Source: an uncultured Gammaproteobacteria bacterium (GTDB lineage: Bacteria; Patescibacteriota; Patescibacteriia; Patescibacteriales; GWC2-42-12). Taken from it: a stretch of 64,000 bases of DNA. Each line of letters opens with the position of its first letter. Position 1 is the stretch's first letter. The translations under genes and the position numbers were made by a program. The notes below the pieces were generated by a model. That model was not told the DNA's origin, ran no database searches, and saw nothing but the letters and a program-made list of their open reading frames with translations. This document shows, piece after piece, positions 679 to 15,211 of the stretch. Where the stretch lies: contig CAZHZE010000002.1 in assembly GCA_964537265.1 (NCBI GenBank), forward strand, positions 21,395 through 85,394, in the 5' to 3' direction.

Positions 679-1065
679 GGGGATGCTAGGCATCGATAAT
701 AAAATTTTCTTAAAAACATTCAGAAGCGAGTTTCAAGCAGTCGCTTTAATCACGCTTGAAAATTATAATAAGTGCCAAAAACTTATTAAGCAAAATGACA
801 TTTTCTTGGAAAATGCCAGCTTTTGCTCCTGTTGCCGCTTAATAGCCGCAACCATCCGCCCGGCTTAGCCTAAGGGTCGGATCACGGGTGTCATATTTTA
901 GGCTCGAACAAGCGGTTAGCTTTGACCGGTTGTTTTAAAAATTCAAAGCTGGTTAATTCCGATTTTGTTCGGTTTCTACGGAATTAATGAGATATTAAAT
1001 CGATCTACTCTGTAAATATGTTTTAAGAAATTTATTAGACAGGGGTTCAATTCCCCTCATCTCCA
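679..1065 (+). ncRNA. ssrA: tmRNA (SsrA), one-piece
   Basis: The 5' GGGGAUG (679-685) pairs with CAUCUCC (1058-1064) plus discriminator A, including the G3:U wobble. T-arm is GGGGUUCAAUUCCCC (1042-1056). An internal tag frame ends ..PAFAPVAA, followed by TAA TAG (840-845). smpB is adjacent. Confidence 0.9.
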
Positions 1066-1070
1066 CATAA

Positions 1071-1156
1071 GCCGCGGTGGCGGAACTGGTAGACGCGTTG
1101 GACTTAAAATCCAATTGCACTAATATGCAGTGAGGGTTCGATTCCCTCCCGCGGCA
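1071..1156 (+). tRNA. tRNA-Leu (anticodon UAA)
   Basis: Acceptor GCCGCGG/CCGCGGC, anticodon loop CTTAAAA, long variable arm, T-loop GGTTCGATTCC. Confidence 0.9.
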
Positions 1157-1168
1157 CAAAATTGTTTT

Positions 1169-1240
1169 GCGGGTATCGTATAATGGTTATTATATTACCT
1201 TGCCAAGGTAGAGATACGGGTTCGATTCCCGTTACCCGCT
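1169..1240 (+). tRNA. tRNA-Gly (anticodon GCC)
   Basis: Acceptor GCGGGTA/TACCCGC, anticodon loop TTGCCAA, T-loop GGTTCGATTCC. Confidence 0.9.
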
Positions 1241-1298
1241 CAGATATTTTACTCTTTTTTAAATTGACTTCCCCTCATTTTTATTATAAAATTTAATT

Positions 1299-1856
1299 AT
1301 GAGAAGAGTTTATCGCAGACCAAAACCTGATTTTGAAGAAAAAAGATTTAGAGTTAATCAACAAATCCGCGTGCCGGTGGTTTTTGTTATTGATGAAAAT
1401 GGCGTAGGCGCAGGCGAGATGTCGACCCAGCAAGCTTTAAGAATGGCCGAACAGGCTGGTTTAGATGTTGTAGAGGTTAACCCTAAAGTTCAACCGCCAG
1501 TAGTTAAAATTATGGATTATGGACAGTTTAAATACAAAAAAGAAAAAGAAGCGCAAAAACAGAAAGTAAAACAGAAAAAAGTGGAAATTAAAGGCATTAG
1601 ATTGTCGGTTAGAATTAGTCAGCATGATTTTGATTTTAGATTGGACCAAGCTAAGAGATTTTTAGAAAGAGGCGATAAATTAAAATTAGAATTGATTTTA
1701 AAAGGCCGTGAAAGACAGCATCCAGAAAAAGCCGAGGAGACTATGAAGAGGTTTTATCAAGCTTTAAAAGCTACGCCTAATTTAAATATGGAAATAGAAC
1801 AGGGCTTGACAAAACAGGGTGGAAGGTTTAATATAACATTGATAAATAAACAATAG
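1299..1856 (+). CDS. infC: translation initiation factor IF-3
   Basis: 185 aa with IF-3 N- and C-domain motifs (VFVIDENG.., GIRLSVRISQHDFDFRL). Canonical infC-rpmI-rplT order. Confidence 0.93.
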   Translation: MRRVYRRPKPDFEEKRFRVNQQIRVPVVFVIDENGVGAGEMSTQQALRMAEQAGLDVVEVNPKVQPPVVKIMDYGQFKYKKEKEAQKQKVKQKKVEIKGIRLSVRISQHDFDFRLDQAKRFLERGDKLKLELILKGRERQHPEKAEETMKRFYQALKATPNLNMEIEQGLTKQGGRFNITLINKQ

Positions 1857-1872
1857 CCAAGAATACGAAAAT

Positions 1873-1895
1873 CAGGTATTTTAGCCTGTTTTTTG
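1873..1895 (+). terminator. weak intrinsic terminator/attenuator after infC
   Basis: CAGGU-AUUUUA-GCCUG followed by UUUUUUG. The stem is only 5 bp. Confidence 0.4.
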
Positions 1896-1902
1896 TTTAA
1901 AA

Positions 1903-2025
1903 GGCCTTGAAAACTTTTTTCAAAAAAGTTTTCAATACTTTCAAAAATTAAAAGGTATCAAACAAAAATTTAATAGTGGGCGAAGTCCTACGGCCATTAA
2001 ATTTTTATTTGATTTTATTATAAAT
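1903..2025 (+). repeat. modular intergenic cassette, copy 1 (infC-rpmI spacer)
   Basis: Contains the A/T palindrome GAAAACTTTTTTCAAAAAAGTTTTC, the AATACTTTCAAAAATTAAAAGGTATCAAAC module, and the hairpin AAATTTAATAGT-GGGC-GAA-GTCC-TACG-GCCATTAAATTT. It ends 21 nt before the rpmI ATG. Confidence 0.85.
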
Positions 2026-2229
2026 ATGCCGAAAATAAAAACTCACAAAGCAACAGCTAAACGCTTTAAAGTAACTAGAAATGAAAAGATTTTAAAAAGA
2101 AAAGCCGGACAAGACCATTTTAATTCTCGTGAATCAGGTAATGTTACCAGAAATAAACGCAGAGACATTGGTATTTCTGAGACTGAAAGAAAAGTAATTA
2201 AACAATTAATGCCATATAATTACGCTTAA
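2026..2229 (+). CDS. rpmI: 50S ribosomal protein L35
   Basis: 67 aa, MPKIKTHKATAKRFKVT... Confidence 0.93.
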   Translation: MPKIKTHKATAKRFKVTRNEKILKRKAGQDHFNSRESGNVTRNKRRDIGISETERKVIKQLMPYNYA

Positions 2230-2339
2230 AAACTTTTTTAAAAAAGTTTTTAATATTTTCAAAAATATAATGTATCAAATAAAATTTAATAGCGAACAAA
2301 GTTCTACGGCCATTAAATTTTATTTGATTATAAATAATT
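2226..2339 (+). repeat. modular intergenic cassette, copy 2 (rpmI-rplT spacer)
   Basis: Same three modules as copy 1. The inner hairpin is GAAC-AAA-GTTC (compensated). The cassette includes the rpmI TAA stop. Confidence 0.85.
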
Positions 2340-2687
2340 ATGCCAAGAGTTAAGAGAGCAAAAATACATCTTAAAAAAAGGAGAAATTTACTTAAAAGAG
2401 CCAAAGGCTATAAATGGGGTAGAAAAAATTTAATGCGCGCCGCTTCAACCGCCGTGGTTAAAGCCGGAGTTCGCGCCTATATCGACCGCCGTTTAAAGAA
2501 ACGCGATAATCGCGCCTTATGGCAGATAAAAATCAGCGCTTTTACAAAAGAGCATGGTTTATCTTATTCAAAATTTATTCATTTGTTAAAAGTTAATAAA
2601 ATTGAAATAGATAGAAAAATTTTAGCTGATTTAGCTGTTAACAATAAAAAAGTTTTATCTAAAATTTTAGATAAAATAAAGAAATAA
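2340..2687 (+). CDS. rplT: 50S ribosomal protein L20
   Basis: 115 aa, MPRVKRAKIHLKKRRNLLKRAKGY... Confidence 0.93.
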   Translation: MPRVKRAKIHLKKRRNLLKRAKGYKWGRKNLMRAASTAVVKAGVRAYIDRRLKKRDNRALWQIKISAFTKEHGLSYSKFIHLLKVNKIEIDRKILADLAVNNKKVLSKILDKIKK

Positions 2688-2699
2688 TAAATTGCTTTC

Positions 2700-2921
2700 A
2701 TGAAAAATTTACAAATAGCACAAATTATTATAGCAGTTTTATTGATGGTAGGGATTCTTTTACAGAATCGTGGCGCCGGTTTATCGGGAGTTTTTGGCGG
2801 TACTGGCAATTTTTACCGAACTAAGAGAGGAATAGAAAAAAAATTATTTATTGCCACTATAATTTTAGGCGTTTTATTTTTTTCGGTCTCTTTAGCCATT
2901 ATTTTATTACATAAAGGCTAA
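2700..2921 (+). CDS. secG: preprotein translocase subunit SecG
   Basis: 73 aa with two TM helices flanking LLQNRGAGLSGVFGG, a SecG-like motif. Confidence 0.8.
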   Translation: MKNLQIAQIIIAVLLMVGILLQNRGAGLSGVFGGTGNFYRTKRGIEKKLFIATIILGVLFFSVSLAIILLHKG

Positions 2922-2995
2922 TTTTTAATGCTCAAGGAGGTTTAATTTATAAATATTTTTGTCAGCTTGTAATATAGCGGGCAGATTTTATCAAA

Positions 2996-4939
2996 GTGAA
3001 CTCATTAAGAGATAAAATAATACAATTTTTTAGTAAAATTAAAAATTTTATTTTTAATTTAAGTTTTTCTTGGCAAATTTTAAAGAATATTTTTAATCGC
3101 GATCACAAACAAACCGAGCTAGATAAAAAACTTGTTTTTTCTTTAGCTAAATCAAGGTGGCCAAGCTTAAAACAATTAAAGTATATAAAAAAATATTTAA
3201 ATCCAGCTGAGCGCATAGTAATAAGTTTTTGCTTGGTTATTATTTTTTTCAGCTCGATTTTTTTGGGTGTTAAATTTTATAAAAATCATTTGCAGATTAT
3301 CCCCGTTAATGGCGGAGATTATATTGAAGGAGTTACCGGCACCATAAAATATGTTAATCCTTTATATTCAAGCGTTAGTGATTTAAATAGCGATTTAGCT
3401 GAGTTAATTTATTCTTCATTATTTAAAAAAAATGGCAAAGATGGGTTAGCTAATGATTTAGCCGAGAGTTATGAAATAAGTAAAGATGGAAAAACCTATA
3501 TAATAAAAATTCGTTCAGACGCAATTTGGTCAGACGGCAGCCAGCTAACCATTGATGATATAATTTTTACTTTTGAAGCTATAAAAGATATCAGATATAA
3601 ATCTCCGTTAAGAGATTCTTTCGCTGGGGTAGAAATTGAAAAAATTGATGATAAGACTATAAAATTTATTTTGTCCGAACCATATGCCGCTTTTTTAAAT
3701 TTGTTAACCTTTGGAATTTTACCACAAAATCTTTGGCAACAAATTGAACCAAATTCGGCTAGTTTAGCCGAACTAAATTTAAAGCCAGTCGGCTCGGGAA
3801 AATATAAATTTAAATCATTGGTTAAAGATAAATCCGGGAATATTAAAACTTATACTTTAGTGCGTAATGAAAATTATTACAGCGATAAGCCTTTTATTGA
3901 CACCATTATTTTTAAGCTCTTTGCTAATTCCCAGGAGGCTATTTTAGCTTTAAATAATAATTTAATAAATGGCGTAAGCTATTTATTAGAACAAGATAAA
4001 AGCCAGGTGGCCTCACAAGATTCTTTAAACTTCTATAATTTAAATTATTCTAAAATTTCAGCAATATTTTTAAATACTAAGTCTAATACGGCTTTGGCTG
4101 ATAAAAAAATTCGTCAAGCCTTAGCTTATGCAATTGATAAACATAGTTTAATTGATGAAGTTTTAGGAGGAAATGCCCGTATTATAGATAGCCCAATTTT
4201 ACCGGATAGTTTTGCTTATTATAAAGATATTAAAAAGTATGATTATAATGTAGCTACTTCCAGCCGCTTATTAAATGAAGCTGGCTGGAAAATAGTTGAG
4301 CTGACTTCCGCAGACCTAGAACAAGCGAATAAGGATTTGTCCTCTAAAGATGAAGCTATTAAAAAACAGGCTGAAGCTAAAATTAAAATGGGCGTTGGCA
4401 AATGGCTTTCAAAAGATAAAAATTATTTAGCCATAACTTTAACTACTGTTGATAATCCAGAATATAGCAAGGTGGCTGAGATAGTCGCTAGATTTTGGAA
4501 AAATATTAATATAAAAACAGAAATTAATTTAGTTGCTCCTAACCAAATTCAAAATAATATTATAAAGTCAAGAAATTTTGACGCTTTGATTTACGGGGAA
4601 ATAACCGGTGCTGACCCAGACCCTTATGTTTTTTGGCATTCTTCACAAATTGGACAATCTGGTTTAAATATAGCTGATTATGGCAATAAAGAAGTTGACA
4701 AGTTGTTAGAAGACGGGCGTTTAAATATAGATATAAAAATTCGTCAAGAAAAATACAAAAAATTTCAAGAAATTATTGTTGATGAAGAGCCAGCTATATT
4801 TTTATACAGCCCAAACTATATTTATGTCCAATCAAAAAAAATTAAAGGTTTTAATGTTCAAAATATTATTTCACCGACTGATCGTCTCAGTAATATCGGC
4901 CAGTGGTATATAAATACCGGTAAAAAACTTATTTGGTAA
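2996..4939 (+). CDS. solute-binding protein, family 5 (OppA/DppA-like), membrane-anchored
   Basis: 647 aa (GTG start in the track). N-terminal TM segment followed by a peptide/nickel SBP-like sequence. No permease or ATPase genes are adjacent. Confidence 0.75.
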   Translation: MNSLRDKIIQFFSKIKNFIFNLSFSWQILKNIFNRDHKQTELDKKLVFSLAKSRWPSLKQLKYIKKYLNPAERIVISFCLVIIFFSSIFLGVKFYKNHLQIIPVNGGDYIEGVTGTIKYVNPLYSSVSDLNSDLAELIYSSLFKKNGKDGLANDLAESYEISKDGKTYIIKIRSDAIWSDGSQLTIDDIIFTFEAIKDIRYKSPLRDSFAGVEIEKIDDKTIKFILSEPYAAFLNLLTFGILPQNLWQQIEPNSASLAELNLKPVGSGKYKFKSLVKDKSGNIKTYTLVRNENYYSDKPFIDTIIFKLFANSQEAILALNNNLINGVSYLLEQDKSQVASQDSLNFYNLNYSKISAIFLNTKSNTALADKKIRQALAYAIDKHSLIDEVLGGNARIIDSPILPDSFAYYKDIKKYDYNVATSSRLLNEAGWKIVELTSADLEQANKDLSSKDEAIKKQAEAKIKMGVGKWLSKDKNYLAITLTTVDNPEYSKVAEIVARFWKNINIKTEINLVAPNQIQNNIIKSRNFDALIYGEITGADPDPYVFWHSSQIGQSGLNIADYGNKEVDKLLEDGRLNIDIKIRQEKYKKFQEIIVDEEPAIFLYSPNYIYVQSKKIKGFNVQNIISPTDRLSNIGQWYINTGKKLIW

Positions 4940-5005
4940 TATTACTATAAATCTTTAGCTTATTAGCTAGTATTCTTAATTGCTTCATCAATTATAAAAT
5001 TAGTT

Positions 5006-5089
5006 GCCGAAGTGGCGAAATTGGTAGACGCACTAGCTTCAGGAGCTAGCGGAGGCAACTCCATGGAGGTTCGAATCCTCTCTTCGGCA
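5006..5089 (+). tRNA. tRNA-Leu (anticodon CAG)
   Basis: Acceptor GCCGAAG/CTTCGGC, anticodon loop TTCAGGA, long variable arm, T-loop GGTTCGAATCC. Confidence 0.9.
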
Positions 5090-5109
5090 CAATTAATATA
5101 AATAAAAAT

Positions 5110-6912
5110 ATGATAACAAAATATAAACCAAGAAATAGAAGGCATCAGATGCCTGTTGCTAAAACTAGTGCGAATTTAACGCATAAAAGTTTTGAGCGCC
5201 CAGTAGTCAAAACAAGCGCTACTGCTGTAATAGAAAATAAATTAAAAGTTATAGTTTTAGGCGGGCTTGAAGAAGTCGGTCGCAATATGACTGTGCTTGA
5301 ATATGATGGAGAAATAATAATTATTGATATGGGTATACAGTTTCCAGAAGAAGATATGCCTGGCATCGATTATATTATTCCTAATATCAATTATTTAGAG
5401 AATAAAACTAAAATGATTAAAGGCATAATTATTACCCATGGCCATATGGATCATATTGGAGCTATTCCTCATTTAATGTCTAGGCTTGGTAACCCGCCAA
5501 TGTTTATGGGCAAGTTAACCGCCGGCATAGTTAGAAAAAGAGCAGAAGAGTTTAATAAATGCCCTAAATTAAATATTTCAGAAATAAATGAAACTTCAAA
5601 ATTGCAGTTAGGAAAATTTTTTAGAGTTGAAACTTTAAGAGTTAATCATTCTATACCTGATTGTTTTGCCGTTATTGTTCATACTCCCCTAGGAGCAATT
5701 ATTCATACCGGTGATTTTAAAATAGATTATTCTCCAGTTAATGATAAGCCGGCTGATTTAAATCGCATTGCTCAAATCGGCGGGCAAGGCGTATTGCTTT
5801 TAATGTCTGATTCCACTGATTCTACTCATCCCGGTTATCAAATCTCCGAATCTTCCATCGGAGATGAAATGAGTAAAATTTTTGAAAAGTTAGAAGGCAG
5901 AATTATTATTGGCACTTTTGCTTCTCAATTAAGCCGTGTGCAGAAACTTTTTGATTTAGCGGAAAAATTTGGTCGTAGAATAAATTTACAGGGCCGTACT
6001 ATGAATGACAATGTAGAAATCGCTCACCAAATTGGTTATCTTAAATTCAATCCTAAAATTTTAGTTGAAGATCGAGAATTAGATCGTTTGCCTGATAATA
6101 AAATTATTATTTTGGGTACCGGCGCGCAAGGCGAAAATAATGCCTTCTTAAGCAGAGTAGTTAATAATGAACATCGCAGCATAAATTTAAAGCCGGGTGA
6201 TACCGTTATTTTTTCTTCATCAGTAATTCCCGGGAATGAACGCAGTATTCAAACTTTAATGGATATGATGGTTAGACAAGGAGCTAAAGTTATAAATTAC
6301 GAAATGATGGATGTCCATGCTGGTGGTCACGCCAAACAAGAAGATTTAAAATTAATGATGCGTTTAATTAAACCAGAATATTTTATGCCAATTGAAGGCA
6401 ACCATTACATGTTGCGCGCGCAGGCTGAATTGGCCGAACAGGTTGGTACGCCAAAAAATAAAATATTTGTGGCTGATAATGGGCAAATTGTAGAATTTCA
6501 CAAAATTTCTAGCGGAGAAGTTATTGGCAAACTTACTAAAGAAAAAGTTTTAACTGATTATGTTATGGTTGATGGTTTGGGCGTAGGTGATGTTTCTAAC
6601 ATTGTTTTACGCGATCGTCGAGTTATGGCTGAAGATGGCATGATTGTTGTTATTGCCACTATTGATGCTAAAACAGGCGATACGATTGGCAATCCAGATA
6701 TTATTTCCCGAGGTTTTGTATATATGAAAGAAAACAAAGAATTAATACAAAAGACTAGAATGAAAGTTAAGAAGATAGTAAAAGATCATAATCCGCGCAC
6801 GCCAGCTGACGACGATTATATTAAAAATAAAATCAGAAATGATGTTGGGCAATTTCTTTTTAGCCAGACTAAACGTCGTCCGATGGTTTTACCGGTGGTT
6901 ATAAAAGTTTAA
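5110..6912 (+). CDS. rnj: ribonuclease J (metallo-beta-lactamase / beta-CASP)
   Basis: 600 aa. HGHMDHIGA motif, beta-CASP region and RNase J C-terminal domain. Confidence 0.9.
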   Translation: MITKYKPRNRRHQMPVAKTSANLTHKSFERPVVKTSATAVIENKLKVIVLGGLEEVGRNMTVLEYDGEIIIIDMGIQFPEEDMPGIDYIIPNINYLENKTKMIKGIIITHGHMDHIGAIPHLMSRLGNPPMFMGKLTAGIVRKRAEEFNKCPKLNISEINETSKLQLGKFFRVETLRVNHSIPDCFAVIVHTPLGAIIHTGDFKIDYSPVNDKPADLNRIAQIGGQGVLLLMSDSTDSTHPGYQISESSIGDEMSKIFEKLEGRIIIGTFASQLSRVQKLFDLAEKFGRRINLQGRTMNDNVEIAHQIGYLKFNPKILVEDRELDRLPDNKIIILGTGAQGENNAFLSRVVNNEHRSINLKPGDTVIFSSSVIPGNERSIQTLMDMMVRQGAKVINYEMMDVHAGGHAKQEDLKLMMRLIKPEYFMPIEGNHYMLRAQAELAEQVGTPKNKIFVADNGQIVEFHKISSGEVIGKLTKEKVLTDYVMVDGLGVGDVSNIVLRDRRVMAEDGMIVVIATIDAKTGDTIGNPDIISRGFVYMKENKELIQKTRMKVKKIVKDHNPRTPADDDYIKNKIRNDVGQFLFSQTKRRPMVLPVVIKV

Positions 6913-6933
6913 AATTAATAAATATTTTTAAAA

Positions 6934-6966
6934 AAGAAGGCATAATAAATAGGCCTTCTTTTTTAA
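6934..6966 (+). terminator. intrinsic terminator after rnj
   Basis: AGAAGGC-loop-GCCTTCT followed by TTTTTT. Confidence 0.75.
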
Positions 6967-6974
6967 TTTTATGT

Positions 6975-7003
6975 TTGACTAAACGATGTTAAGATGCTAT
7001 TAT
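6975..7003 (+). promoter_or_regulatory. sigma70-type promoter (TTGACT-17-TATTAT)
   Basis: TTGACT at 6975-6980, 17-nt spacer, TATTAT at 6998-7003. Lies upstream of the M23 peptidase gene. Confidence 0.55.
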
Positions 7004-7064
7004 AATGATGTTATTTTAATAAATTAATATTAAATATATTACTAGAAATTTTAAAAAAATATCG

Positions 7065-8399
7065 GTGAATTCACTGATATTTTTAGTAAAATTTTTTATC
7101 TTTTTGAAGAGGTTATTAACCGCTTTTTTTGTTAATATAATACTAAAACCAATTATATTTATTTTAAAATTTATATTTTATAAAATTTTAGTTAAATTAT
7201 ATTTATTTTATTTTTCTATTATAAATCGTTTAGGATTATTTGATAAAATAAGAAGTAGATCCACCTCTTTTTTTTCTAACCAAAGATTACTTCATATAAG
7301 TGTTGGTTTATTAACTGTATTTTTTATTATTTTTAATTTAACCCAAAAAACTCAAGCCATAGCTCCGGACGAGATTGCTGGCAAAACATTTTTATCAGAA
7401 ATATTCTCTAATGAATTTGGTGAAAATGAAGAATTAATAGAAGAGTATTTTGACGAGGAACAAACCATAACTCCAATTCAACAGACTTATTTAGATAATC
7501 TAACCGCTTTTAAATCTCAGCCAACGGCAGAAATGATAATCCCAGAAGATATGGGATATGATCTAGAGGATGTTATTCAAAACGGTGACGCTTTAATTAA
7601 AAAAGATACCGCCTCTACAAATAATAAAATAATTCGTCCTAGAGAAGGAATTGTTGATTATATAGTAAAAACTGGTGATACAATTAGCACAATTGCTGCC
7701 AGCTTTGGAATTAGCGTTAATACAATTTTGTGGGAGAATAACCTCAACGCTTATAGCTTAATTAGGCCGGGCAATAAGTTAGTTATTTTGCCTGTTAGCG
7801 GAGTTTCTCATCAGGTTGCTAAAGGAGATACTTTACTATCCATAGCCTCTAAATATGGGGTAGATTCTAATAAAATTATGGAAGTAAATAAATTGGCTAA
7901 TGCAGAGATGCTTTCTTCAGGTCAAAAATTAATTATTCCTGGTGGCAAAAAAAATTATTATGCCAGCAATTCAGCAAGCAGCGCTTCTAATATTTCCCTA
8001 AAAAATTTATTTAAGCCGGAAAATCTTAAATCAACAGCTAGCAATAAATTGGCTTGGCCGACTGTCGGCGCTAGAATTACTCAATATTATTCTTGGAGAC
8101 ATTATGCTATTGATATAGCCAATAAAATTGGCACGCCAATTTATGCTTGCGATTCTGGCGTAATTGAAGTGGCTGGTTGGGGCAAGGGTTATGGCAATCA
8201 AATTGTTGTAGACCATGGAGGCGGCAGAAAATCTCGCTATGCTCATTTATCAAAATTTTATGTAAAAAAAGGTGATGCGGTTGAAAAAGGAGAGGCTATT
8301 GGAGCTATGGGTTCGACCGGATATTCGACTGGTTCGCATTTACATTTTGAATATATTATTAATGGCGTAAAAACTAATCCTTTAAATTATTTAAAATAA
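7065..8399 (+). CDS. LysM-domain M23 family peptidoglycan endopeptidase
   Basis: 444 aa. N-terminal TM region, two LysM repeats (YIVKTGDTISTIA, HQVAKGDTLLSIA), and a C-terminal M23 motif (..GSTGYSTGSHLHFE). Confidence 0.9.
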   Translation: MNSLIFLVKFFIFLKRLLTAFFVNIILKPIIFILKFIFYKILVKLYLFYFSIINRLGLFDKIRSRSTSFFSNQRLLHISVGLLTVFFIIFNLTQKTQAIAPDEIAGKTFLSEIFSNEFGENEELIEEYFDEEQTITPIQQTYLDNLTAFKSQPTAEMIIPEDMGYDLEDVIQNGDALIKKDTASTNNKIIRPREGIVDYIVKTGDTISTIAASFGISVNTILWENNLNAYSLIRPGNKLVILPVSGVSHQVAKGDTLLSIASKYGVDSNKIMEVNKLANAEMLSSGQKLIIPGGKKNYYASNSASSASNISLKNLFKPENLKSTASNKLAWPTVGARITQYYSWRHYAIDIANKIGTPIYACDSGVIEVAGWGKGYGNQIVVDHGGGRKSRYAHLSKFYVKKGDAVEKGEAIGAMGSTGYSTGSHLHFEYIINGVKTNPLNYLK

Positions 8400-8519
8400 C
8401 CTTTAAAAACTTTTTCAAAAAAGTTTTTAATATTTTCAAAAAATATAAGGTATCAAATTAAAATTTAATAGCGGGCAAAGCCCTACGGCCATTAAATTTT
8501 TATTTAATTATATAAAATT
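8399..8519 (+). repeat. modular intergenic cassette, copy 3
   Basis: AACCTTTAAAAAC, the A/T palindrome, AATATTTTCAAAAAATATAAGGTATCAAAT, and the hairpin at 8461-8499 (AAATTTAATAGC-GGGC-AAA-GCCC-TACG-GCCATTAAATTT). Confidence 0.85.
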
Positions 8520-8774
8520 ATGTATATTTTATTTGGTTTTATTGTTTTAGCGATTGGTGCAGCGATAGTTATTAAATCCGAGGCTATGCTGAATTCTTTC
8601 GGCAGAATAGATTTTTTTGAACGTCATCTTGGAGCCGATGGCGGGTCAAGATTAGGTTATAAATTAATAGGTATGATTATTATTTTTATAGGCATATTAA
8701 TTATGACTAATATGATAGGAGGATTTTTAGAATGGATATTATGGCCAATTTTACGTTATAATAAAATTCAGTAA
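8520..8774 (+). CDS. small membrane protein, unknown function
   Basis: 84 aa with 3 predicted hydrophobic helices. Sits directly behind cassette copy 3. Confidence 0.6.
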   Translation: MYILFGFIVLAIGAAIVIKSEAMLNSFGRIDFFERHLGADGGSRLGYKLIGMIIIFIGILIMTNMIGGFLEWILWPILRYNKIQ

Positions 8775-8780
8775 ATAATT

Positions 8781-8853
8781 GGGCTGATAGCTCAGCTGGT
8801 AGAGCACCGCGTTTGCAACGCGGGGGTCTGGGGTTCGAATCCCCATCAGTCCA
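8781..8853 (+). tRNA. tRNA-Ala (anticodon UGC)
   Basis: GGGCTGA acceptor with the G3:U70 identity pair, anticodon loop TTTGCAA, T-loop GGTTCGAATCC. Confidence 0.92.
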
Positions 8854-8857
8854 CTCT

Positions 8858-9298
8858 ATGTTTTTACCAACTCATTTAGTTGCCGGTATGATTATTGGTA
8901 AAATAACCGGCAATTATAGTATCTCAATTTTAAGCTCTATAGTCATGGATTTAGATCATTTATTTGCTTATTACCGAGCTGGTATTCTTTTTAATTTTAA
9001 AAAGTTATTTAATATGGTTACCAGCAGATCTAACGACGTCATGCCGCAAAGAAATTTTTTTCATAATATATTTTTTTGTTTTTTAGTTTCAATATTGTTT
9101 TTAGCTATAAATTTTTCTGGCGGTTTAATTTTTTTCTTTGCTTATATTTTCCATTTATTTTTAGACTCATTAGATAATTCAAATTATTATCCAATGTATC
9201 CTAATAAAAAGATAAGGCTGCATGGTCCGATAAAATATTTTTCTAAGCAAGAAGTTTTTATTGCGTTTATTTTACTTTTAATTTTTTTTATCATTTAA
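8858..9298 (+). CDS. multi-pass membrane protein, possibly membrane-bound metal-dependent hydrolase (YdjM/DUF457-like)
   Basis: The track start at 8813 overlaps tRNA-Ala, so I trimmed to the first ATG after the tRNA (MFLPTHLVAG..). Hydrophobic with conserved His/Asp (DLDHLF, HLFLD). Confidence 0.55.
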   Translation: MFLPTHLVAGMIIGKITGNYSISILSSIVMDLDHLFAYYRAGILFNFKKLFNMVTSRSNDVMPQRNFFHNIFFCFLVSILFLAINFSGGLIFFFAYIFHLFLDSLDNSNYYPMYPNKKIRLHGPIKYFSKQEVFIAFILLLIFFII

Positions 9299-9301
9299 AA
9301 T

Positions 9302-12109
9302 ATGGTTGCTGGTAAACAAAAATTTATGATAATTGACGGCAACGCGTTGATCCATCGCAGTTTTCACGCTTTGCCGCCCTTAACTACAAAAAATGGAGAA
9401 ATTGTTAATGCGGTTTATGGTTTTACCACCGTTTTAATTAAGGCTTTGCGCGAATTTAGGCCAGAATATGTAGCTTTAACTTTGGATCGAAAAGAAAAAA
9501 CTTTCCGCCATAAACAATTTAAAGATTATAAAGCCACTCGTGTTAAAGCGCCAGATGAATTATATGAGCAAATTCCTAGAGTAAAAGAAATTGCGGAAAA
9601 TTTTAATATTCCGATTTTTGAACTGGCCGGTTTTGAAGCAGATGATTTAATTGGCACCTTGGCTAATAAAGTTGATGGCAAAGTTGAAAAAATAATCGTT
9701 ACCGGTGATATGGATACTATGCAGTTAATTAATGATCATACTAAAGTTTTTACCATGAAACGCGGTTTAACCGATTCTATGATTTATGATGAGAAAGGGG
9801 TTGAAGGAAGATATGGCTTAATACCTGAACAGATGATTGATTTTAAAGCTTTGCGCGGCGATCCATCTGATAATATTCCTGGCGTAAAAGGCATTGGTGA
9901 AAAGACGGCTACCGAACTTTTACAAAATTTTAAAACTCTAGACGGAGTTTATAAAAATATAAAATCTAAAAAAATAAAAGACCGCATTCGTGAATTGCTA
10001 ATACAGCATAAAAATAATGCTTATATGAGCAAAGAATTAGCTACTATAAAATGTGATGTTCCAATTAAATTTGATTTAAACGAGGCTCGTTTCGGGCAAT
10101 TTAATCAAGAAAAATTAGCTAAACTTTTTAATGAATTGGAATTTCGTTCGCTTTTACCAAGGTTGCAGGGGTTAGCGCAAGAGGCTGAAAAAAGATTAAT
10201 AAAAACCGCTGATCATGAACAGATTGATAAATTTAAGAGGAATTTAGAATTATTTAAATATGAGTTAGTTGATAATAATAAAAAATTTGATAATTTTTTA
10301 AAAAAATTGCAGGCACAAAAAGAATTTACTTTTGATACGGAAACAGCTAACTTTAATCCGGTAACAGCTGATTTATTGGGCATAAGTTTTAGTTGGAAAA
10401 CTGGTGAAGCATATTATATTAATTTTCAATTACGAATTAAAAATTACGAATTAAAAAATGCTGATTTGTTCAACTATAAGGAAAAAAAGCATGAAAAAGG
10501 GTTTGATAATGATTGGTTGAGCAAGCTAAAGCCAATTTTTGAAAACGAAAAAATAAAAAAATATGGTCATAACATAAAATTTGATATTGAAGTTATGGCC
10601 AGCCAAGGAATAAATATTAAAGGTGTGGTCGCTGATTCTATGATTGCCTCCTATCTTTTAAATCCCGGCAGCCGTCAGCATAATTTAGACGCGGTTACTT
10701 TTAGTGAATTTAACCATGTTAAAATTTCTAAAGAAGATTTATTGGGCAAAGGCAAAGATAAAATAGTTTTTTCTGAAGTACCGGTTGAAAGACTTTATAA
10801 TTATTCCTGCGAGGACGCTGATTTTACTAATCGCTTGATAAAAAAATTAATACCAGAATTAAAGACGCAGAAATTAATTAAATTATTTGAAGAAATGGAA
10901 ATGCCACTTGTTCTAGTTCTGGCTATTATGGAAATTAACGGCATTAAAATAGATAAAGAATTTTTAAGCGCCATGGGTAAATCGGTCAATAGAAAGATTG
11001 CACAGCTAACAAAAAAAATTCATGATTTAGCCGGCACGGAATTTAACATAAATTCTACCCAGCAATTAAGAGAAATTTTATTTGATAAACTGGCTATACC
11101 GGCTATGGGCATTACTAAAAATAAAACCGGACTTTCTACTGGCGCTGAAGAATTAGCCAAATTAAAAGGCCAGCATCCAATTATTGATTTAATTCAGGAA
11201 TATCGTGAATTAGTTAAATTATCCACGACTTATATTGAGGCTTTGCCCGAATTAATTAATAAAAAAACTGGCCGTTTGCACACCAGTTTTAACCAGACTG
11301 TAACGGCTACCGGACGTTTATCATCAACCGAACCTAATATGCAAAATATACCGATTCGCACTGAGCTAGGTCGGGAAATTCGTAAGTCTTTTATCGCCGA
11401 TAAAGGCTATAAATTATTAAGTTTAGATTATTCCCAAATTGAATTGCGTCTGGCCGCCCATATGTCTGGCGATAAAAAAATGATTAAAGCCTTTAAACAA
11501 GGCGAAGATATTCACACGGCCACAGCCGCGGAAATAAATCGGATTAAATTAGAGGATGTTACTTCGGAAATGCGCCGGGAAGCTAAGGCGGTAAATTTTG
11601 GTATTTTATATGGCCAAGGGCCGCACGGTTTATCACAGGGCGCGGATATTCCCTACGCCAGGGCCAAAGAATTTATTGATAAATATTTTTCTGTTTATAA
11701 AGATGTTAAAAAATTTGTTGATGAAACTATTGAGATGGCCAGAGAAAAAGGCTATACTGAAACTTTATTCGGCCGGCGTAGAATTTTACCGGAAATAAAT
11801 TCCTCGGTGATGCAAGTTAGAAAGGCGGCTGAGCGCATGGCAATTAATACTCCGCTTCAAGGCACGGCCGCGGATATTATCAAAGTGGCCATGGTAGAGG
11901 TTCAAAAAATGATAGATAAAGAATATGGGCAGGATGTAAAAATGCTTTTACAAGTTCATGACGAATTAGTTTTTGAAGCAAAAAAAGGTTTAGCTGAAAA
12001 TGCGGCTGAAAAAATTAAAAATATTATGGAAGAAGTAATAGAATTAAAAGTGCCGATTGTAGTTGATGCTAGTATTGGAGATAATTGGGGGGAGATGAAA
12101 AACCTTTAA
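9302..12109 (+). CDS. polA: DNA polymerase I
   Basis: 935 aa. 5'-nuclease domain (IIDGNALIHRSFHA), 3'-5' exo-like domain, and pol motifs (LLSLDYSQIELR, QVHDELVFE). Confidence 0.96.
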   Translation: MVAGKQKFMIIDGNALIHRSFHALPPLTTKNGEIVNAVYGFTTVLIKALREFRPEYVALTLDRKEKTFRHKQFKDYKATRVKAPDELYEQIPRVKEIAENFNIPIFELAGFEADDLIGTLANKVDGKVEKIIVTGDMDTMQLINDHTKVFTMKRGLTDSMIYDEKGVEGRYGLIPEQMIDFKALRGDPSDNIPGVKGIGEKTATELLQNFKTLDGVYKNIKSKKIKDRIRELLIQHKNNAYMSKELATIKCDVPIKFDLNEARFGQFNQEKLAKLFNELEFRSLLPRLQGLAQEAEKRLIKTADHEQIDKFKRNLELFKYELVDNNKKFDNFLKKLQAQKEFTFDTETANFNPVTADLLGISFSWKTGEAYYINFQLRIKNYELKNADLFNYKEKKHEKGFDNDWLSKLKPIFENEKIKKYGHNIKFDIEVMASQGINIKGVVADSMIASYLLNPGSRQHNLDAVTFSEFNHVKISKEDLLGKGKDKIVFSEVPVERLYNYSCEDADFTNRLIKKLIPELKTQKLIKLFEEMEMPLVLVLAIMEINGIKIDKEFLSAMGKSVNRKIAQLTKKIHDLAGTEFNINSTQQLREILFDKLAIPAMGITKNKTGLSTGAEELAKLKGQHPIIDLIQEYRELVKLSTTYIEALPELINKKTGRLHTSFNQTVTATGRLSSTEPNMQNIPIRTELGREIRKSFIADKGYKLLSLDYSQIELRLAAHMSGDKKMIKAFKQGEDIHTATAAEINRIKLEDVTSEMRREAKAVNFGILYGQGPHGLSQGADIPYARAKEFIDKYFSVYKDVKKFVDETIEMAREKGYTETLFGRRRILPEINSSVMQVRKAAERMAINTPLQGTAADIIKVAMVEVQKMIDKEYGQDVKMLLQVHDELVFEAKKGLAENAAEKIKNIMEEVIELKVPIVVDASIGDNWGEMKNL

Positions 12110-12219
12110 AAACTTTTTTAAAAAAGTTTTTAATATTTTCAAAAAATATAAGGTATTAAATAAAAATTTTATAGCGGGCAAAGCCCTGCGGCTATAAAAT
12201 TTATATTTGATGTAATTTT
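12101..12219 (+). repeat. modular intergenic cassette, copy 4 (overlaps polA stop)
   Basis: AACCTTTAAAAAC contains the last polA codons and the TAA stop. Palindrome at 12108-12131. Hairpin at 12164-12202 with a compensated outer stem (TATAGC/GCTATA). Confidence 0.85.
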
Positions 12220-13500
12220 ATGAATCTAAAGGATTTACAAAACAAAAAAATTGCTATTTTAGGTCTAGGTTTAGAGAATACAGCCTTGGTTAAGTATATA
12301 TTAAAACATAATATTAAATGCGAAATTACTGTTTGTGACAAGCGCACGGAAATAAAAAGTAAGTTGCCGGTTAGTTGGCAATTAGGGAAAAACTATAATA
12401 AAAATTTAGAGAAATTTGATATTCTATTTCGCGCACCAGGTTGGCCGATAAATGAAGTTAAAAGTAAAAAGTTAAAAGTTGAAAGTATAAATTCTCCAAT
12501 GAGATTATTTTTTGATTTATGCCCGACTAAAAATATTATCGGTGTAACCGGAACTAAAGGCAAGGGCACTACTTCTAGTTTGATTTACGAAATTTTAAAA
12601 ATTGCCGGTAAACGAGTTTGGTTGGGCGGGAATATCGGCATAGCGCCATTTAAATTTATAGATAAAATTAAAAAAACCGATTGGGTGGTTTTAGAATTAT
12701 CATCTTTTCAACTTGAAGATATGACCGTTAGTCCGCATATTTCAGTAATTACTAATTTTTATTCTGAACATTTAGCGCCGGCTGATCCTAATAACCCGAA
12801 CTTTCATAAATCACTTAATGATTATAAGAAGGCTAAGATGAATATTATTAAATATCAGGAGAAAGGCAATTGGACGGTATTGAATCATCAATTAAGAACC
12901 ACAAACTACAAATTAAAAAGTAAAAAAATATATTTTAAGAAATCGGAATTACTTTCAAAATTAATTGGTGAACATAATAAAGAAAATATCGGCGCGGCCG
13001 TAGAAGTAGCAAAAATTGTCGGCATTAAATCTGAAATAATAAAAAAAGCCGTAGCTAATTTTAAGGGTTTAGAACATCGTTTAGAATTTGTTAAAGAAGT
13101 TAAAGGTGTAAAATATTATGACGATAGTTTTGCTACTACGCCAGAAGCGGCTATTATTGCGTTAAAATCTTTTAACCAGCCAGTAATTATTTTACTTGGG
13201 GGAGCTGATAAAGGATCTGATTTTAAGAAGTTAGCCAAAGAAGTAAAAAAGCGATGCAAGTTTATAGTTTTGATAAATGGTAAAGCTACGCCGCAGATAA
13301 AAAAACAGCTTTTAAAAGCTGGATATGGAAGAAATAAAATAAAACAAGCGAATAATATTGAAGAGATAGTAAAGATTGCTAGGTCAAAAGCGGCGGCTGG
13401 AGATGTTGTATTATTATCAACGGCTTGCGCTAGCTTCGGTATATTTAAAAATTATAAAGAAAGAGGGAATTTATTTAAAAAACAAGTAAAAAAATTATAA
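12220..13500 (+). CDS. murD: UDP-N-acetylmuramoylalanine--D-glutamate ligase
   Basis: 426 aa. N-terminal Rossmann-like GLGLEN, P-loop GVTGTKGKGTTSS, Mur ligase C-domain. Confidence 0.88.
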   Translation: MNLKDLQNKKIAILGLGLENTALVKYILKHNIKCEITVCDKRTEIKSKLPVSWQLGKNYNKNLEKFDILFRAPGWPINEVKSKKLKVESINSPMRLFFDLCPTKNIIGVTGTKGKGTTSSLIYEILKIAGKRVWLGGNIGIAPFKFIDKIKKTDWVVLELSSFQLEDMTVSPHISVITNFYSEHLAPADPNNPNFHKSLNDYKKAKMNIIKYQEKGNWTVLNHQLRTTNYKLKSKKIYFKKSELLSKLIGEHNKENIGAAVEVAKIVGIKSEIIKKAVANFKGLEHRLEFVKEVKGVKYYDDSFATTPEAAIIALKSFNQPVIILLGGADKGSDFKKLAKEVKKRCKFIVLINGKATPQIKKQLLKAGYGRNKIKQANNIEEIVKIARSKAAAGDVVLLSTACASFGIFKNYKERGNLFKKQVKKL

Positions 13501-13501
13501 T

Positions 13502-13528
13502 AAAACAAAGCCATCACAGCTTTGTTTT
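13502..13528. terminator. bidirectional hairpin terminator between murD and the LysW-like gene
   Basis: AAAACAAAGC-CATCACA-GCTTTGTTTT. Confidence 0.6.
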
Positions 13529-13561
13529 AAAGCATTGAATAAATTAACTAGTTATTAACAT

Positions 13562-13738
13562 TTAATCGTTTTCGCCTTCTTCGTCCTGCTGTTCCTGAAG
13601 CGGATCTAGCTGTAATGGTTGCAGAGTAACGATTTCCAGCTCGGCGCCGCAGTTTAAGCAAGTAACTAAATCTTTTTCCGAAGCTTCTTCTTCAATTATA
13701 ATGTCGCTTAAACAGATCGGGCATTGAGTTGTTTGCAT
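13562..13738 (-). CDS. LysW-like zinc-ribbon small acidic protein (58 aa)
   Basis: Not in the ORF track (<60 aa). Sequence MQTTQCPICLSDIIIEEEASEKDLVTCLNCGAELEIVTLQPLQLDPLQEQQDEEGEND*. CPxC..CxxC ribbon plus acidic tail. Has its own TTGTAA-17-TATTAT promoter. Confidence 0.6.
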   Translation of the reverse strand: MQTTQCPICLSDIIIEEEASEKDLVTCLNCGAELEIVTLQPLQLDPLQEQQDEEGEND

Positions 13739-13777
13739 AGGTTGAACTTGTTTTTTAATAGTTATTAACCTAATATA

Positions 13778-13806
13778 ATAATAGCAAAAAAATAACCATT
13801 TTACAA
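13778..13806 (-). promoter_or_regulatory. sigma70-type promoter (TTGTAA-17-TATTAT) for the LysW-like ORF
   Basis: Read on the minus strand: -35 at 13801-13806, -10 at 13778-13783. Confidence 0.5.
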
Positions 13807-13810
13807 CATT

Positions 13811-14845
13811 ATGATAATTTTTCTTTACGGCCAGGATAGTTTTCGCAGCCGTTTAAAATTAAATGAATTAAAAGAAAAATACCTGCGCGAAGTTGATAAG
13901 TCGGGCAGTGGTTTAGAAATTATTGACGGAATTAAAGCTAATTTTTCTGAAATTACTGCAGCTATTAGCCCTTCTTCATTATTATCAAAAAAGCGTTTAG
14001 TTATTATTGAAAATATTTTTATTAATAAAGATAAAACTATTTTTGAAAAATTATTTGAGTATTTTAATAATAAAAAATTAGCGGACAATATTATTATTTT
14101 TTGGGAAGAAAATATTAAAATTAAAAAAGCTAAAAATGCCCAAACGCCGATGCTTATAGATTCAAGTGGGAAAGAAAAAGCTTTATTAAAAAAGCCGGCG
14201 GAGTTTTTTAAATTTTTAGCCGGTCAAAAATATGCTTATAGTTTTAATGTATTAAGTAACACTGAGGCGGCTATTTGGGTTAAAAAACAAACGGCTTTGC
14301 GTGGCGGAAAAATTGGAGTAAAAGCCGCTGAAATATTAGTTGGCTTAGTCGGTAATGATGGTTGGCAGATCAATAATGAGTTAGATAAACTAATAAGTTA
14401 TAAAATGGCCGGACAGCTAACTAAAGATAGCGCTGAGATAGAAGTCGATGATGTTAAAAAATTAGTAAGAGGAAATTTTAGTGATAACATTTTTGCTTTA
14501 ACCGATGCTTTAAGTTTAAAAAACAAAGTTTTAGCCGCTAGGCTTTTAGATGAGCAGGTTGAAGCTGGCTTAAGCGACGGCTATTTATTAAATATGTTCG
14601 TGAGACAAGTTAAAATTTTATTGCAGATTAAACAAGCGCTTGAATCAGGTTTAAGCCCGCGCCAAATAGCCAGTCATTTAAAAATTCATCCCTTCGTTGC
14701 GCAAAAAGGTATAGAGCAGGCGCGCTATTTCACTTTGCCTGTTTTAAAAAATATTTTAAACAATTTGGTAAAAATTGATTATAATGTTAAATCCGGGAGA
14801 GGCGATTATCTAACTGGCCTAAATATTCTTATCGCTAAATTATAA
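13811..14845 (+). CDS. holA: DNA polymerase III subunit delta
   Basis: 344 aa. N-terminal MIIFLYGQDSFRSR.. and an overall HolA-like layout. Confidence 0.8.
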   Translation: MIIFLYGQDSFRSRLKLNELKEKYLREVDKSGSGLEIIDGIKANFSEITAAISPSSLLSKKRLVIIENIFINKDKTIFEKLFEYFNNKKLADNIIIFWEENIKIKKAKNAQTPMLIDSSGKEKALLKKPAEFFKFLAGQKYAYSFNVLSNTEAAIWVKKQTALRGGKIGVKAAEILVGLVGNDGWQINNELDKLISYKMAGQLTKDSAEIEVDDVKKLVRGNFSDNIFALTDALSLKNKVLAARLLDEQVEAGLSDGYLLNMFVRQVKILLQIKQALESGLSPRQIASHLKIHPFVAQKGIEQARYFTLPVLKNILNNLVKIDYNVKSGRGDYLTGLNILIAKL

Positions 14846-14866
14846 TTTTTGTTTATAAAGCATAAT

Positions 14867-14890
14867 AAAAACCCCTTAGAAGGGGTTTTT
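14867..14890. terminator. bidirectional terminator (holA / rpsT)
   Basis: AAAAACCCCT-TAGA-AGGGGTTTTT. Confidence 0.8.
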
Positions 14891-14905
14891 ATATTTTAAA
14901 TTTAT

Positions 14906-15172: not shown

Positions 15173-15211
15173 AAATTACTTTAATTAATTAATTTGTGTG
15201 AGAGATTTTAT

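Follow-up and report, generated by a model that had tools for sequence, protein, structure and literature searches.

What does a cassette of about 110 nt do that stands four times, always on the same strand, in front of genes in a compact bacterial genome? The question is raised by a 64,000-nt stretch of contig CAZHZE010000002.1, which we call the window, and in particular by the copy that follows the gene for an M23/LysM peptidase (copy 3, our focal copy). Genomes of the candidate phyla radiation (CPR, Patescibacteria) measure less than 1 Mb, their spacers are very short, few repeats are believed to occur in them, and nearly none of the organisms has been cultured. To our knowledge, almost nothing is known of how they control gene expression.

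The first-pass annotation of the window had argued for an RNA element and against an ordinary dispersed repeat. The first part of this claim stands and the second does not, since the family is both. The cassettes form a clade-restricted, previously undescribed family with two covarying hairpins, and the resident copies are under purifying selection. Their behaviour is best read as dispersal in the manner of miniature inverted-repeat transposable elements (MITEs), combined with purifying selection on each resident copy. Judging from sequence and context, we tentatively favour the view that the cassette is a selected, co-transcribed RNA module that acts post-transcriptionally, and hold this to be quite possible, somewhat short of probable.

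Anatomy of the cassette

All four copies were recovered on the plus strand by pattern matching and by a covariance model, at the places where the first-pass annotation had put them (Table 1). A degenerate pattern of the hairpin core matched only these 4 sites in 64 kb and none in 100 shuffles, and patterns for the two preceding parts, an AT-rich palindrome (module i) and an A/T-rich box (module ii), were likewise far above chance. Folded alone, the full window cassettes are more stable than shuffled sequences (z −3.7 to −6.4). The four are not the complete set, as a fifth, partial copy lies directly 5' of the ferredoxin gene (ATG at 33295), whose counterpart in a related genome (L022) is preceded by a full cassette.

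The cassette comprises a first hairpin (H1), a linker, a second hairpin (H2) and an A/U-only spacer that leads to the ATG. H1 is AT-rich, with 13 bp (TTWAAAACTTTTT / AAAAAGTTTTWAA) and a loop of 3 nt. The linker, a 21-nt A/U single strand (ATAYTTTCAAAAAATATAAKGT), includes the TATAAK box and, two bases 5' of H2, a G that never varies; its columns are invariant or nearly so across the family alignments. H2 has 57 nt and 21-22 bp: a lower stem of 12-13 bp of free sequence is followed by AUAGC/GCCAU with an A.C mismatch, a 4-nt UACG bulge on the 3' side, a 4-bp GRRC/GYYC stem and an RAA triloop. Among 173 distinct copies the A.C mismatch is present in 170 and the bulge reads TACG in 162. The cassette begins with (C)TTTAAAAAC and ends with ATTTGAT(TATAA). 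Its inverted repeats are internal, formed by the self-pairing of H1 and of H2, and no terminal inverted repeats were seen at the cassette ends.

Several details of the first-pass annotation change with this structure. The palindrome that it described as A/T-only contains other bases and is itself the covarying hairpin H1. The 5' arm of H2 begins at the ATC of GGTATCAAAT, formerly assigned to module ii, and its 3' arm extends to ...ATTTGAT, which makes the stem (12-13 + 5 + 4 bp) longer than described; H2 ends 8-12 nt before the ATGs of the window, not 17-21 nt. Nor does every copy fill its spacer, since copy 1 is preceded by a promoter-like site and a terminator-like hairpin.

Four further structures were considered and rejected. 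An outer helix ACCUU/AAGGU, which RNAfold predicts to close a three-way junction in copies 3 and 4, has CC/GG positions without covariation; a mini-hairpin AUAUUUU/AAAAUAU in the linker is broken by an ATAC variant without compensation; pairing of the UACG bulge with the GUA 5' of H2 in a pseudoknot shows no real covariation and is geometrically implausible, since the GUA abuts the base of a 22-bp helix; an upstream ORF from the ATG of TATAATG would exist in only about half of the copies, where this ATG is present.

About a quarter of the cassettes carry an inserted GC mini-hairpin, TTTT/CCCC-N3-5-GGGG-ATAAA(Y), of 16-19 nt. It occurs at three places, in the H1 loop, after AGTTTT and after ATATTTT, and also alone before start codons; in L008 (we denote loci outside the window by L and three digits) it is a lineage-specific insertion relative to the rplT copy of the window. 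The TAA stop codons of rpmI (2227-2229) and polA (12107-12109) lie within the first bases of copies 2 and 4 (CTTAAAAAC / TTTAAAAAC), so that the upstream gene ends on a stop codon which the cassette provides or overlaps. Three Logan contigs (L180-L182) that encode exactly the ribosomal protein L20 of the window begin 48 or 91 nt before its ATG, inside the cassette, which indicates that the repeat breaks short-read assemblies there.

A clade-restricted family

When the core pattern was run against 185,579 species, each represented by a single genome, 63 exact matches were obtained at 59 loci in 17 assemblies, all of them metagenome-assembled genomes (MAGs) of Patescibacteria/Parcubacteria; some are mislabelled 'uncultured Gammaproteobacteria' and one is named Falkowbacteria. 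Two single MAGs carry at least 16 and at least 13 of these matches, and what recurs in the relatives is the whole cassette, beyond the hairpin alone. With a covariance model built from 23 copies, 72 full copies (counted above 63 bits) were found in the 59 loci and the window. A metagenome scan gave at least 120 loci and added at least about 134 copies. An nhmmer census arrived at at least 206 non-overlapping copies, 189 of those listed being full length.

Viral contigs contained no cassette (0 matches), on which ground a phage origin was rejected. Rfam 15, searched at gathering level with the window and 37 loci, placed no family on any cassette, and in an E-value search of an L020 stretch including the cassette the sole match to it was a spurious microRNA family (E = 0.47). 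Both searches thus speak against a known RNA family, in agreement with the first-pass annotation, and in the full-text literature we found no description of such an element.

Covariation and the question of the strand

The two hairpins are supported by three sets of comparisons. In an alignment of the 72 copies, which was fitted to the covariance model, 97.9% of the cells are paired, compared with 87.9% when partners are shuffled and 40-58% when they are slid by 1-3 columns, and 26 of the 37 pairs changed on both sides. RNAalifold, applied to 23 copies aligned with MAFFT, without gaps and without fitting to a structure, returned exactly the two hairpins with their 37 pairs, 15 of them compensated. 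Finally, pair types were counted in ungapped arms extended outward from the exact core, hence independently of the covariance model: in the lower stem, 92-99% of the pairs at a position are Watson-Crick and each position has two to four pair types (e.g. CG 32 / TA 28), and the inner stem is divided between GC (32) and AU (30).

The length of the H2 arms varies by 1 nt, on both arms together. In H1, 11 of 13 pairs change on both sides across the family, for example from A-U to G-C at model pair 4/28 and from U-A to C-G at 10/22. Orthologues of the rplT cassette (copy 2) occur in L008 and L059, and between the window and L059 all stem substitutions are compensatory pairs. Within the window, the inner-stem changes (GGGC/GCCC, GAAC/GTTC, GGGC/GTCC) and, in copy 4, those from AAT..ATT to TAT..ATA in the outer stem and from A.C to A-T had been listed correctly.

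The argument that G.U pairs reveal a sense-strand RNA, which the first-pass annotation had put forward, did not survive. At the variable positions of the 173 distinct copies G.U and A.C are equally frequent (27 and 28), and for 176 of 186 copies the fold of the antisense strand is the more stable one (mean −36.2 versus −32.0 kcal/mol); wobble pairs are therefore no proof of an active sense RNA, and we abandoned them as a means of assigning the strand. The only conserved non-canonical pair is the A.C of the sense strand, which is a G.U on the antisense strand. Since this mismatch, the bulge and the loop are conserved and have not been repaired to a perfect palindrome, selection appears to act on an asymmetric shape.

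Strand-symmetric wobble statistics would be expected of a site that acts in the DNA, either as a cruciform or as a palindrome bound by a nucleoid, recombination or replication factor. AT-rich palindromes extrude easily, and the H2 tip is seen to flip alone (see below). Yet we give this explanation no more than a slight chance: the strong bias to the transcription direction of the neighbouring genes is unexpected for a symmetric site, and the covariation of a lower stem of free sequence points to pairing and not to base-specific recognition of a duplex.

Selection and inheritance of resident copies

To compare copies at the same locus, we grouped them by downstream protein and took pairs from different genomes. 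In the 111 orthologous pairs obtained, the proteins are 75% identical, the third positions of identical codons 63% and four-fold sites about 50%, while the cassettes are 91% identical; the cassette surpasses third-position identity in every one of the 111 pairs. Such conservation next to four-fold sites of about 50% identity shows that the resident copies are under purifying selection. Random paralogous cassettes, at 88% identity, point to strong constraint across the family.

The arm of the lower stem, where the sequence is free, is 90% identical in orthologous and 74% identical in non-orthologous pairs (p ~5e-26, a value that is indicative only, since copy pairs are not phylogenetically independent and p-values are inflated). 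From this excess we infer that copies at the same locus were inherited vertically and not re-inserted. Same-locus copies also share rare stem variants.

Gene context, orientation and spacing

A census of orientation and stem changes, which the first-pass annotation had suggested as a check, found the orientation to be non-random and the stem changes to be compensatory. Among the 206 listed copies, 119 have both the end of a co-oriented gene at most 40 nt upstream and a co-oriented start at most 60 nt downstream; a co-oriented ORF follows 173, and an opposite-strand one about 22. Several apparent exceptions are explained by the ORF cut-off of 60 aa, which missed small genes (those of ribosomal proteins L36, L31, L33 and L2). 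About 85-90% of the listed copies share the direction of the gene that they precede, and the spacer from H2 to the ATG is mostly 6-17 nt long, with modes at 8 and 11.

Among the matches listed, the 162 forward copies with an ORF precede at least 86 gene families. Downstream products confirmed by Pfam are L35, L20, S12, S7, S6, L10, HPF, SecE, ThrRS, ferredoxin and a Mur ligase; S18, L13, L24, L6, L18, Ctc, SSB, enolase, NDK, ATP synthase subunits, GatA, NusB, pilins and PilT were assigned by N-terminal sequence only, and many further genes encode membrane proteins or proteins of unknown function. Cassettes lie inside gene pairs that are co-transcribed in almost all bacteria, namely rpmI-rplT (window), rpsL-rpsG (L028) and rpsF-ssb (L007/L045). 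A putative RNase III gene, assigned by N-terminal motif only, precedes the cassette in L034, L037 and L043. They also accompany rRNA genes: in L027 one cassette lies 145 nt upstream of the 23S rRNA and a second in the 23S-5S spacer, where L036 has one as well. At both loci 23S and 5S are linked without an adjacent 16S (L027 3720-7366; L036 1-647).

Shine-Dalgarno (SD) motifs are almost absent from 213 well-delimited genes without a cassette in the window and the loci. The position of a −10-like box in these genes has its maximum where the last base falls at −7 relative to the ATG; a considerable share of the mRNAs may therefore be leaderless. A few window genes have a strong SD motif, for instance those at 17540-17932 (minus strand) and 56587.

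The near-absence of SD motifs, together with an H2 that ends 6-17 nt before the ATG, raises the alternative that the cassette enhances translation initiation, its linker or H2 acting as a standby platform that recruits the 30S subunit or S1 to SD-less starts. Many targets are highly expressed (ribosomal proteins, HPF, enolase, SSB, ATP synthase, pilins), and even the reverse copies abut a start codon, at 3-8 nt. We consider this quite unlikely, because the copies before 23S rRNA and in the 23S-5S spacer, found in two genomes, have no ORF to serve, the spacers are so short that any tolerated insertion touches a start codon, and most SD-less genes do without a cassette.

Probable transcription through the cassette

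At L177 the cassette belongs to an ordered series, in which the terminator of the upstream gene is followed by a promoter (TTGACA-16-TATTAT), an L10 leader, the cassette and rplJ. The leader (RF00557, 50.2 bits, gathering score 44) ends in an attenuator hairpin and a U-run that abut the cassette. An L10 leader was also matched upstream of the cassette and rplJ in L106 (50.1 bits), and more weakly in L069 (37 bits). In L020 and L068 a TTGACA promoter is followed by a T-box-like leader, a terminator, the cassette and thrS. Here the alignment to the T-box consensus GGGUGGAACCACG has a high posterior probability, with matches (33.5 and 48.2 bits, E = 8e-6 and 1e-7) that stay below the gathering score of 93.

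Promoters upstream of the cassette are not confined to these loci. Non-coding sequence of at least 90 nt precedes 28 distinct copies, and 9 of these have a promoter match of at least 10/12 within 250 nt, mostly with a perfect TTGACA, against a background of 6.9% of random windows. The order of promoter, U-run hairpin and cassette recurs in L027, L028, L031, L150, L177, L020 and L068, and in the divergent regions of L071 and L101 a conventional extended −10 promoter lies upstream of the cassette. At every transcription-unit start that we inspected closely (L071, L101, L027, L020, L177), a conventional promoter thus precedes it.

A constitutive promoter inside the cassette would bypass the L10 and T-box-like attenuators, which argues that the cassette is transcribed as part of a 5' untranslated region (UTR) or of an intercistronic RNA. 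On this arrangement of sequence elements, we conclude that it is probably transcribed from upstream and is unlikely to be a promoter. A role at the RNA level, proposed by the first-pass annotation on the strength of the wobble pairs, hence remains the best reading for a different reason, namely the location of the cassette between promoters or attenuator leaders and the genes that these control.

The rival view of a portable promoter takes the TATAAK box as −10 element, the A/T tracts upstream of it as UP-like and H2 as a stabiliser of the 5' end. It would account for the consensus TATAAT of the box and its invariant A at position 2, for the co-orientation with the downstream gene, for the terminator-like hairpin before several copies and for the ferredoxin copy of the window, which retains modules i and ii without the hairpin. 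We nevertheless regard it as improbable, and the first-pass annotation was right not to see a standard promoter here. No −35 hexamer was found 16-18 nt upstream of the box in any of three registers, and no TG extension; model positions 20-27 read AAAGTTTT, with AA directly before the box. Canonical TTGACA-N16-18-TATAAT sites are, however, present elsewhere in the same genomes, and a promoter survey that includes one CPR species reports ordinary −35/−10 elements in most species (PMC12641261, 2025). The last base of the box varies (TATAAT, TATAAG, TATATT, TATAAC, TATAAA). As the covarying stem begins 2 nt after the box, a normal start would remove paired bases; a register shifted by 2 (TAAKGT) keeps T-A...T, and its start site would lie deep in the covarying stem. 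H1, upstream of the box, covaries, and GC hairpins of 16-19 nt have entered both between H1 and the box and directly before the A-run. Finally, there is the position downstream of attenuator leaders, with conventional promoters upstream at the inspected unit starts.

Presence after promoters and leaders, in the rRNA leader and spacer and in long operons, together with the two-hairpin architecture, would also suit an RNA element acting on transcription itself, such as a processive antiterminator of the put or EAR kind or an rRNA nut-like site. This is very improbable in our view, for the cassette has no similarity to boxA/boxB, put or EAR (negative in Rfam), many copies precede single short genes without an obvious terminator downstream, and inverted copies are conserved. 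An intrinsic terminator was rejected as well: a terminator scan of window positions 1-16000 gave no site at the four cassettes on either strand, and sense copies that stand between leaders and their genes cannot terminate efficiently.

Dispersal of the cassette

Although its resident copies are constrained, the family behaves like a repeat. Empty orthologous sites, with spacers of 5-30 nt, are common in sister genomes; 186 flank-pair matches without a cassette reduce to about 95 distinct empty sites after deduplication. Partial forms consist of H1 only, of H1 with a GC mini-hairpin, of the linker only or of the 3' half of H2. In being dispersed in many copies whose presence varies between related genomes the family resembles a MITE; it differs from one by lacking terminal inverted repeats. 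Pairs of filled and empty sites (L046 versus L081/L042/L091; L030 versus L149/L003) show no clear target-site duplication, and a TATAA motif flanks H2 on both sides often, if inconsistently.

The inverted copies adjoin infA, prfA-like and TypA-like genes and rpmJ, and in five assemblies one occupies the junction of rpsO and an NYN gene as a reverse complement, where L015 has a forward copy. Except in L050, H1 of the inverted copies lies 3-8 nt from the ATG of the opposite-strand gene.

In L073 (2593-2738) and L137 (6519-6664), H1 and the linker have one orientation and only the tip of H2 is flipped (ATGGCCGTAGAGCTTTGCTCGCTAT), and the inverted repeat is evidently able to turn its own centre around; relative to the adjacent infA, the flipped tip is in sense orientation. 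L050 (1139-1362, 2668-2774) contains a divergent subfamily with loop flank TTCG and an arm GTATTTTTT, in two tandem copies 117 nt apart and a third copy, antisense to a cluster of genes for small secreted or membrane proteins.

The question is then whether the cassette is simply a selfish or neutral DNA repeat of the MITE or repetitive extragenic palindrome (REP) type, whose hairpins are required by a transposase or recombinase or are kept perfect through template switching in quasi-palindromes, and whose orientation bias reflects only which insertions do no harm. The empty sites and partial copies, the inverted copies, the flip of the tip alone, the tandem copies of L050, the GC mini-hairpins inserted into some copies and the presence of other repeat families in other spacers all agree with it, as do the equal frequencies of G.U and A.C, which symmetry at the DNA level predicts. 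We still judge a repeat without host function to be unlikely, if well worth considering. Neutral copies would have decayed, but orthologous copies are inherited vertically and about 91% identical where four-fold sites are near saturation. The A.C mismatch, 4-nt bulge and loop are kept and not corrected to a perfect palindrome, and the unpaired linker is as conserved as the stems. There are, moreover, no terminal inverted repeats at the cassette ends, no clear target-site duplication in filled/empty pairs and no matches in viral contigs.

Comparison with known elements

Correia elements (CREE/NEMIS) of Neisseria are multicopy intergenic repeats of about 100-150 bp, often just upstream of genes. 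They are co-transcribed with their neighbours, their long hairpins are reportedly cut by RNase III, and they have promoter-like boxes and presence/absence polymorphism between strains. The cassette resembles them in size, copy number, position upstream of genes, long hairpins, promoter-like box and polymorphism. It differs in having no sequence similarity to them, internal instead of terminal inverted repeats, no clear TA target duplication in filled/empty pairs, strong purifying selection across species and a host lineage of CPR bacteria with tiny genomes.

ERIC/IRU, the pneumococcal BOX and RUP elements and REP/BIME are small extragenic palindromic repeats as well, of which BOX (boxA-B-C) and BIME are modular mosaics; they are transcribed within operons and affect mRNA stability depending on orientation. 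REP units have 20-40 nt, a 5' GTAG and a RAYT partner (TnpA-REP). The cassette shares with this group the small, extragenic and palindromic nature, whereas its H2 has 57 nt and is preceded by (K)GT in place of GTAG, its unpaired linker is conserved across species and more than 85% of its copies have one orientation.

RNase III sites between cistrons of phage T7, and those of rpsO-pnp, secE-nusG and the rplJL-rpoBC leader in Escherichia coli, are hairpins of about two turns with an asymmetric loop or bulge, at which cleavage decides what becomes of the RNA downstream. H2 is similar, with 12-13 + 5 + 4 bp whose length is conserved while the sequence varies and with the UACG bulge and A.C mismatch as asymmetries, and the cassette occurs in the same types of operon; the known sites are, however, single-locus, and the cassette is a dispersed family of 90% sequence identity. 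In cggR-gapA of Bacillus subtilis (RNase Y), as with the 5' hairpin of ompA, a cut leaves a hairpin at the extreme 5' end that protects the mRNA. Here the likeness is an A/U single strand followed at once by a stable hairpin in front of a highly expressed cistron; in the cassette, the cut would be a predicted one.

Integron attC sites were rejected, as the cassette arms (ATCAAAT...ATTTGAT) do not agree with RYYYAAC...GTTRRRY and the neighbours are core genes (for ribosomal proteins, rRNA, polA, aminoacyl-tRNA synthetases). In working style, the cassette is closest to the co-transcribed repeats (Correia/NEMIS, ERIC, BOX, REP/BIME) and to intercistronic RNase III sites. It is set apart from typical repeats by an unpaired part conserved across species, by constrained resident copies and by placement between attenuators and genes.

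A possible mode of action

If the cassette works as RNA, it would be transcribed from upstream, either together with the gene that precedes it in an operon or from a conventional promoter and by way of a regulatory leader. The RNA would form the two hairpins with the conserved A/U single strand between them, ending 6-17 nt before the start codon. An RNase III-type enzyme could then cut within the 21-22 bp of H2 or, alternatively, an enzyme of the RNase Y/E type could do so at the invariant G of the A/U linker, close to the 5' side of H2. Whichever the site, the cut would free the downstream cistron or rRNA from the RNA that precedes it. The 5' end of the released RNA would be standard and protected, with a start region of unstructured A/U, and this would suit organisms that hardly use SD motifs. 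We infer a role in processing, stabilising or insulating the downstream cistron, and prefer processing or stabilisation because it covers both the mRNA and the rRNA contexts. Endonucleolytic processing is the mechanism that we think likeliest, but as a specific proposition, drawn by analogy with the systems above, it is more doubtful. A bolder version strikes us as unlikely: Parcubacteria with hardly any SD usage would depend on the cassette as a 'cistron-start module' to express internal genes and those behind long leaders, and a lineage-specific factor or RNase would recognise its linker and H2 tip and either cut the transcript to a short, 5'-proximal, unstructured and quasi-leaderless start or load ribosomes directly.

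Several observations weigh against a post-transcriptional module of this kind. About 13 copies at about 8 loci are inverted and yet conserved, and any strictly strand-specific action must tolerate or separately explain them. The sense strand has the conserved A.C mismatch and folds worse than the antisense strand, and the wobble statistics favour neither. The conservation of the linker exceeds what is usual for known RNase cleavage sites, and with a near-perfect TATAAT in it some promoter activity is possible. The T-box matches below gathering score and the dependence among copy pairs, both mentioned above, belong to the same side of the balance.

Other repeats and features

The genomes with the cassette contain further repeats in other spacers. 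One is a palindromic repeat of about 110 nt (GTCATTGCGAGC...GAAGCAATCTC...GAGATTGCTTCGTCGC...CTCGCAATGAC), unrelated to the cassette, which often occupies a site where a sister genome has the cassette; runs of short repeats of 8-11 nt, of the TTACGAAT, TTACAAAT or ATTATCCCA types, fill additional spacers. In the window, at 47071-47198, a box similar to module ii (CAAAATATAATATATTAAAT) is followed by an 11-nt inverted repeat, CCCCGTTAGAT (47101-47111) / ATCTAACGGGG (47188-47198). As it brackets the ATG at 47164, it could form a structure that sequesters this start codon. Table 1 gives the positions of these and other features.

Table 1. Cassettes, their parts and other features. Positions without a locus name refer to the window.
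Feature	Position	Strand	Details
Copy 1, cassette	1906-2015	+	Before rpmI (L35, Pfam), ATG 2026; covariance model 106.9 bits
Copy 1, hairpins	H1 1907-1935; H2 1957-2013	+	
Upstream of copy 1, promoter-like site	1806-1834	+	TTGACA-17-TAATAT, within the end of infC
Upstream of copy 1, terminator-like hairpin	1873-1888	+	Followed by T-run (region to 1895)
Copy 2, cassette	2225-2330	+	rpmI-rplT gap, L20 ATG 2340; covariance model 87.3 bits
Copy 2, hairpins	H1 2226-2253; H2 2274-2328	+	
Copy 3 (focal), cassette	8402-8510	+	Covariance model 105.9 bits
Copy 3, neighbours	8399; 8520		M23/LysM peptidase gene end 8399; 84-aa ORF, ATG 8520, without Pfam match
Copy 3, H1	8403-8430	+	Arms TTAAAAACTTTTT / AAAAAGTTTTTAA; module i of the first-pass annotation
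Copy 3, linker	8431-8451	+	TATTTTCAAAAAATATAAGGT; A/U single strand with TATAAK box
Copy 3, H2	8452-8508	+	13-bp covarying lower stem, AUAGC/GCCAU with A.C mismatch
Copy 3, H2 tip		+	UACG 3' bulge, GRRC/GYYC stem, AAA triloop
Copy 3, spacer from H2 to ATG	8509-8519	+	11 nt, A/U only, without Shine-Dalgarno motif
Copy 4, cassette	12105-12213	+	Between polA and Mur ligase gene (Pfam), ATG 12220; covariance model 101.5 bits
Copy 4, hairpins	H1 12106-12133; H2 12155-12211	+	
Partial fifth copy	33218-33294	+	Degenerate H1, GC-rich insert, TATAAT linker, only 5' arm of H2
GC mini-hairpin sites	L008 5965-6107, 6317-6443; L018 1368-1457; L051 6725-6815		
GC mini-hairpin sites	L032 4801-4860; window 33250-33262		
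Second palindromic repeat	L112 13400-13522; L146 4489-4616; L088 1701-1848; L066 4508-4622; L031 ~2200-2330		
Runs of short repeats	L001 ~7420-7490; L156 2050-2158; L091 9581-9636; L034 6807-6907	− (L001)	L001 run downstream of cassette
Short-repeat strings	10421-10459; 12883-12921; 48186-48224		Related strings within window ORFs
Group I intron (Rfam)	L017 422-662		Upstream of tRNA gene 811-884
Group I intron (Rfam)	L034 54-499		3' edge of 23S match

Significance

The cassette would be a functional RNA system, or one of RNA and protein, specific to one clade of Parcubacteria and a candidate for a new Rfam family. It offers a clean case of a repeat-like element under selection at the level of the host. 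Should the narrower idea of a cistron-start module prove true, it would be a new way to define translation starts, built on a domesticated mobile repeat. The covariance model could serve as a lineage marker, and through the family, post-transcriptional control and SD-independent initiation become open to tests in CPR bacteria.

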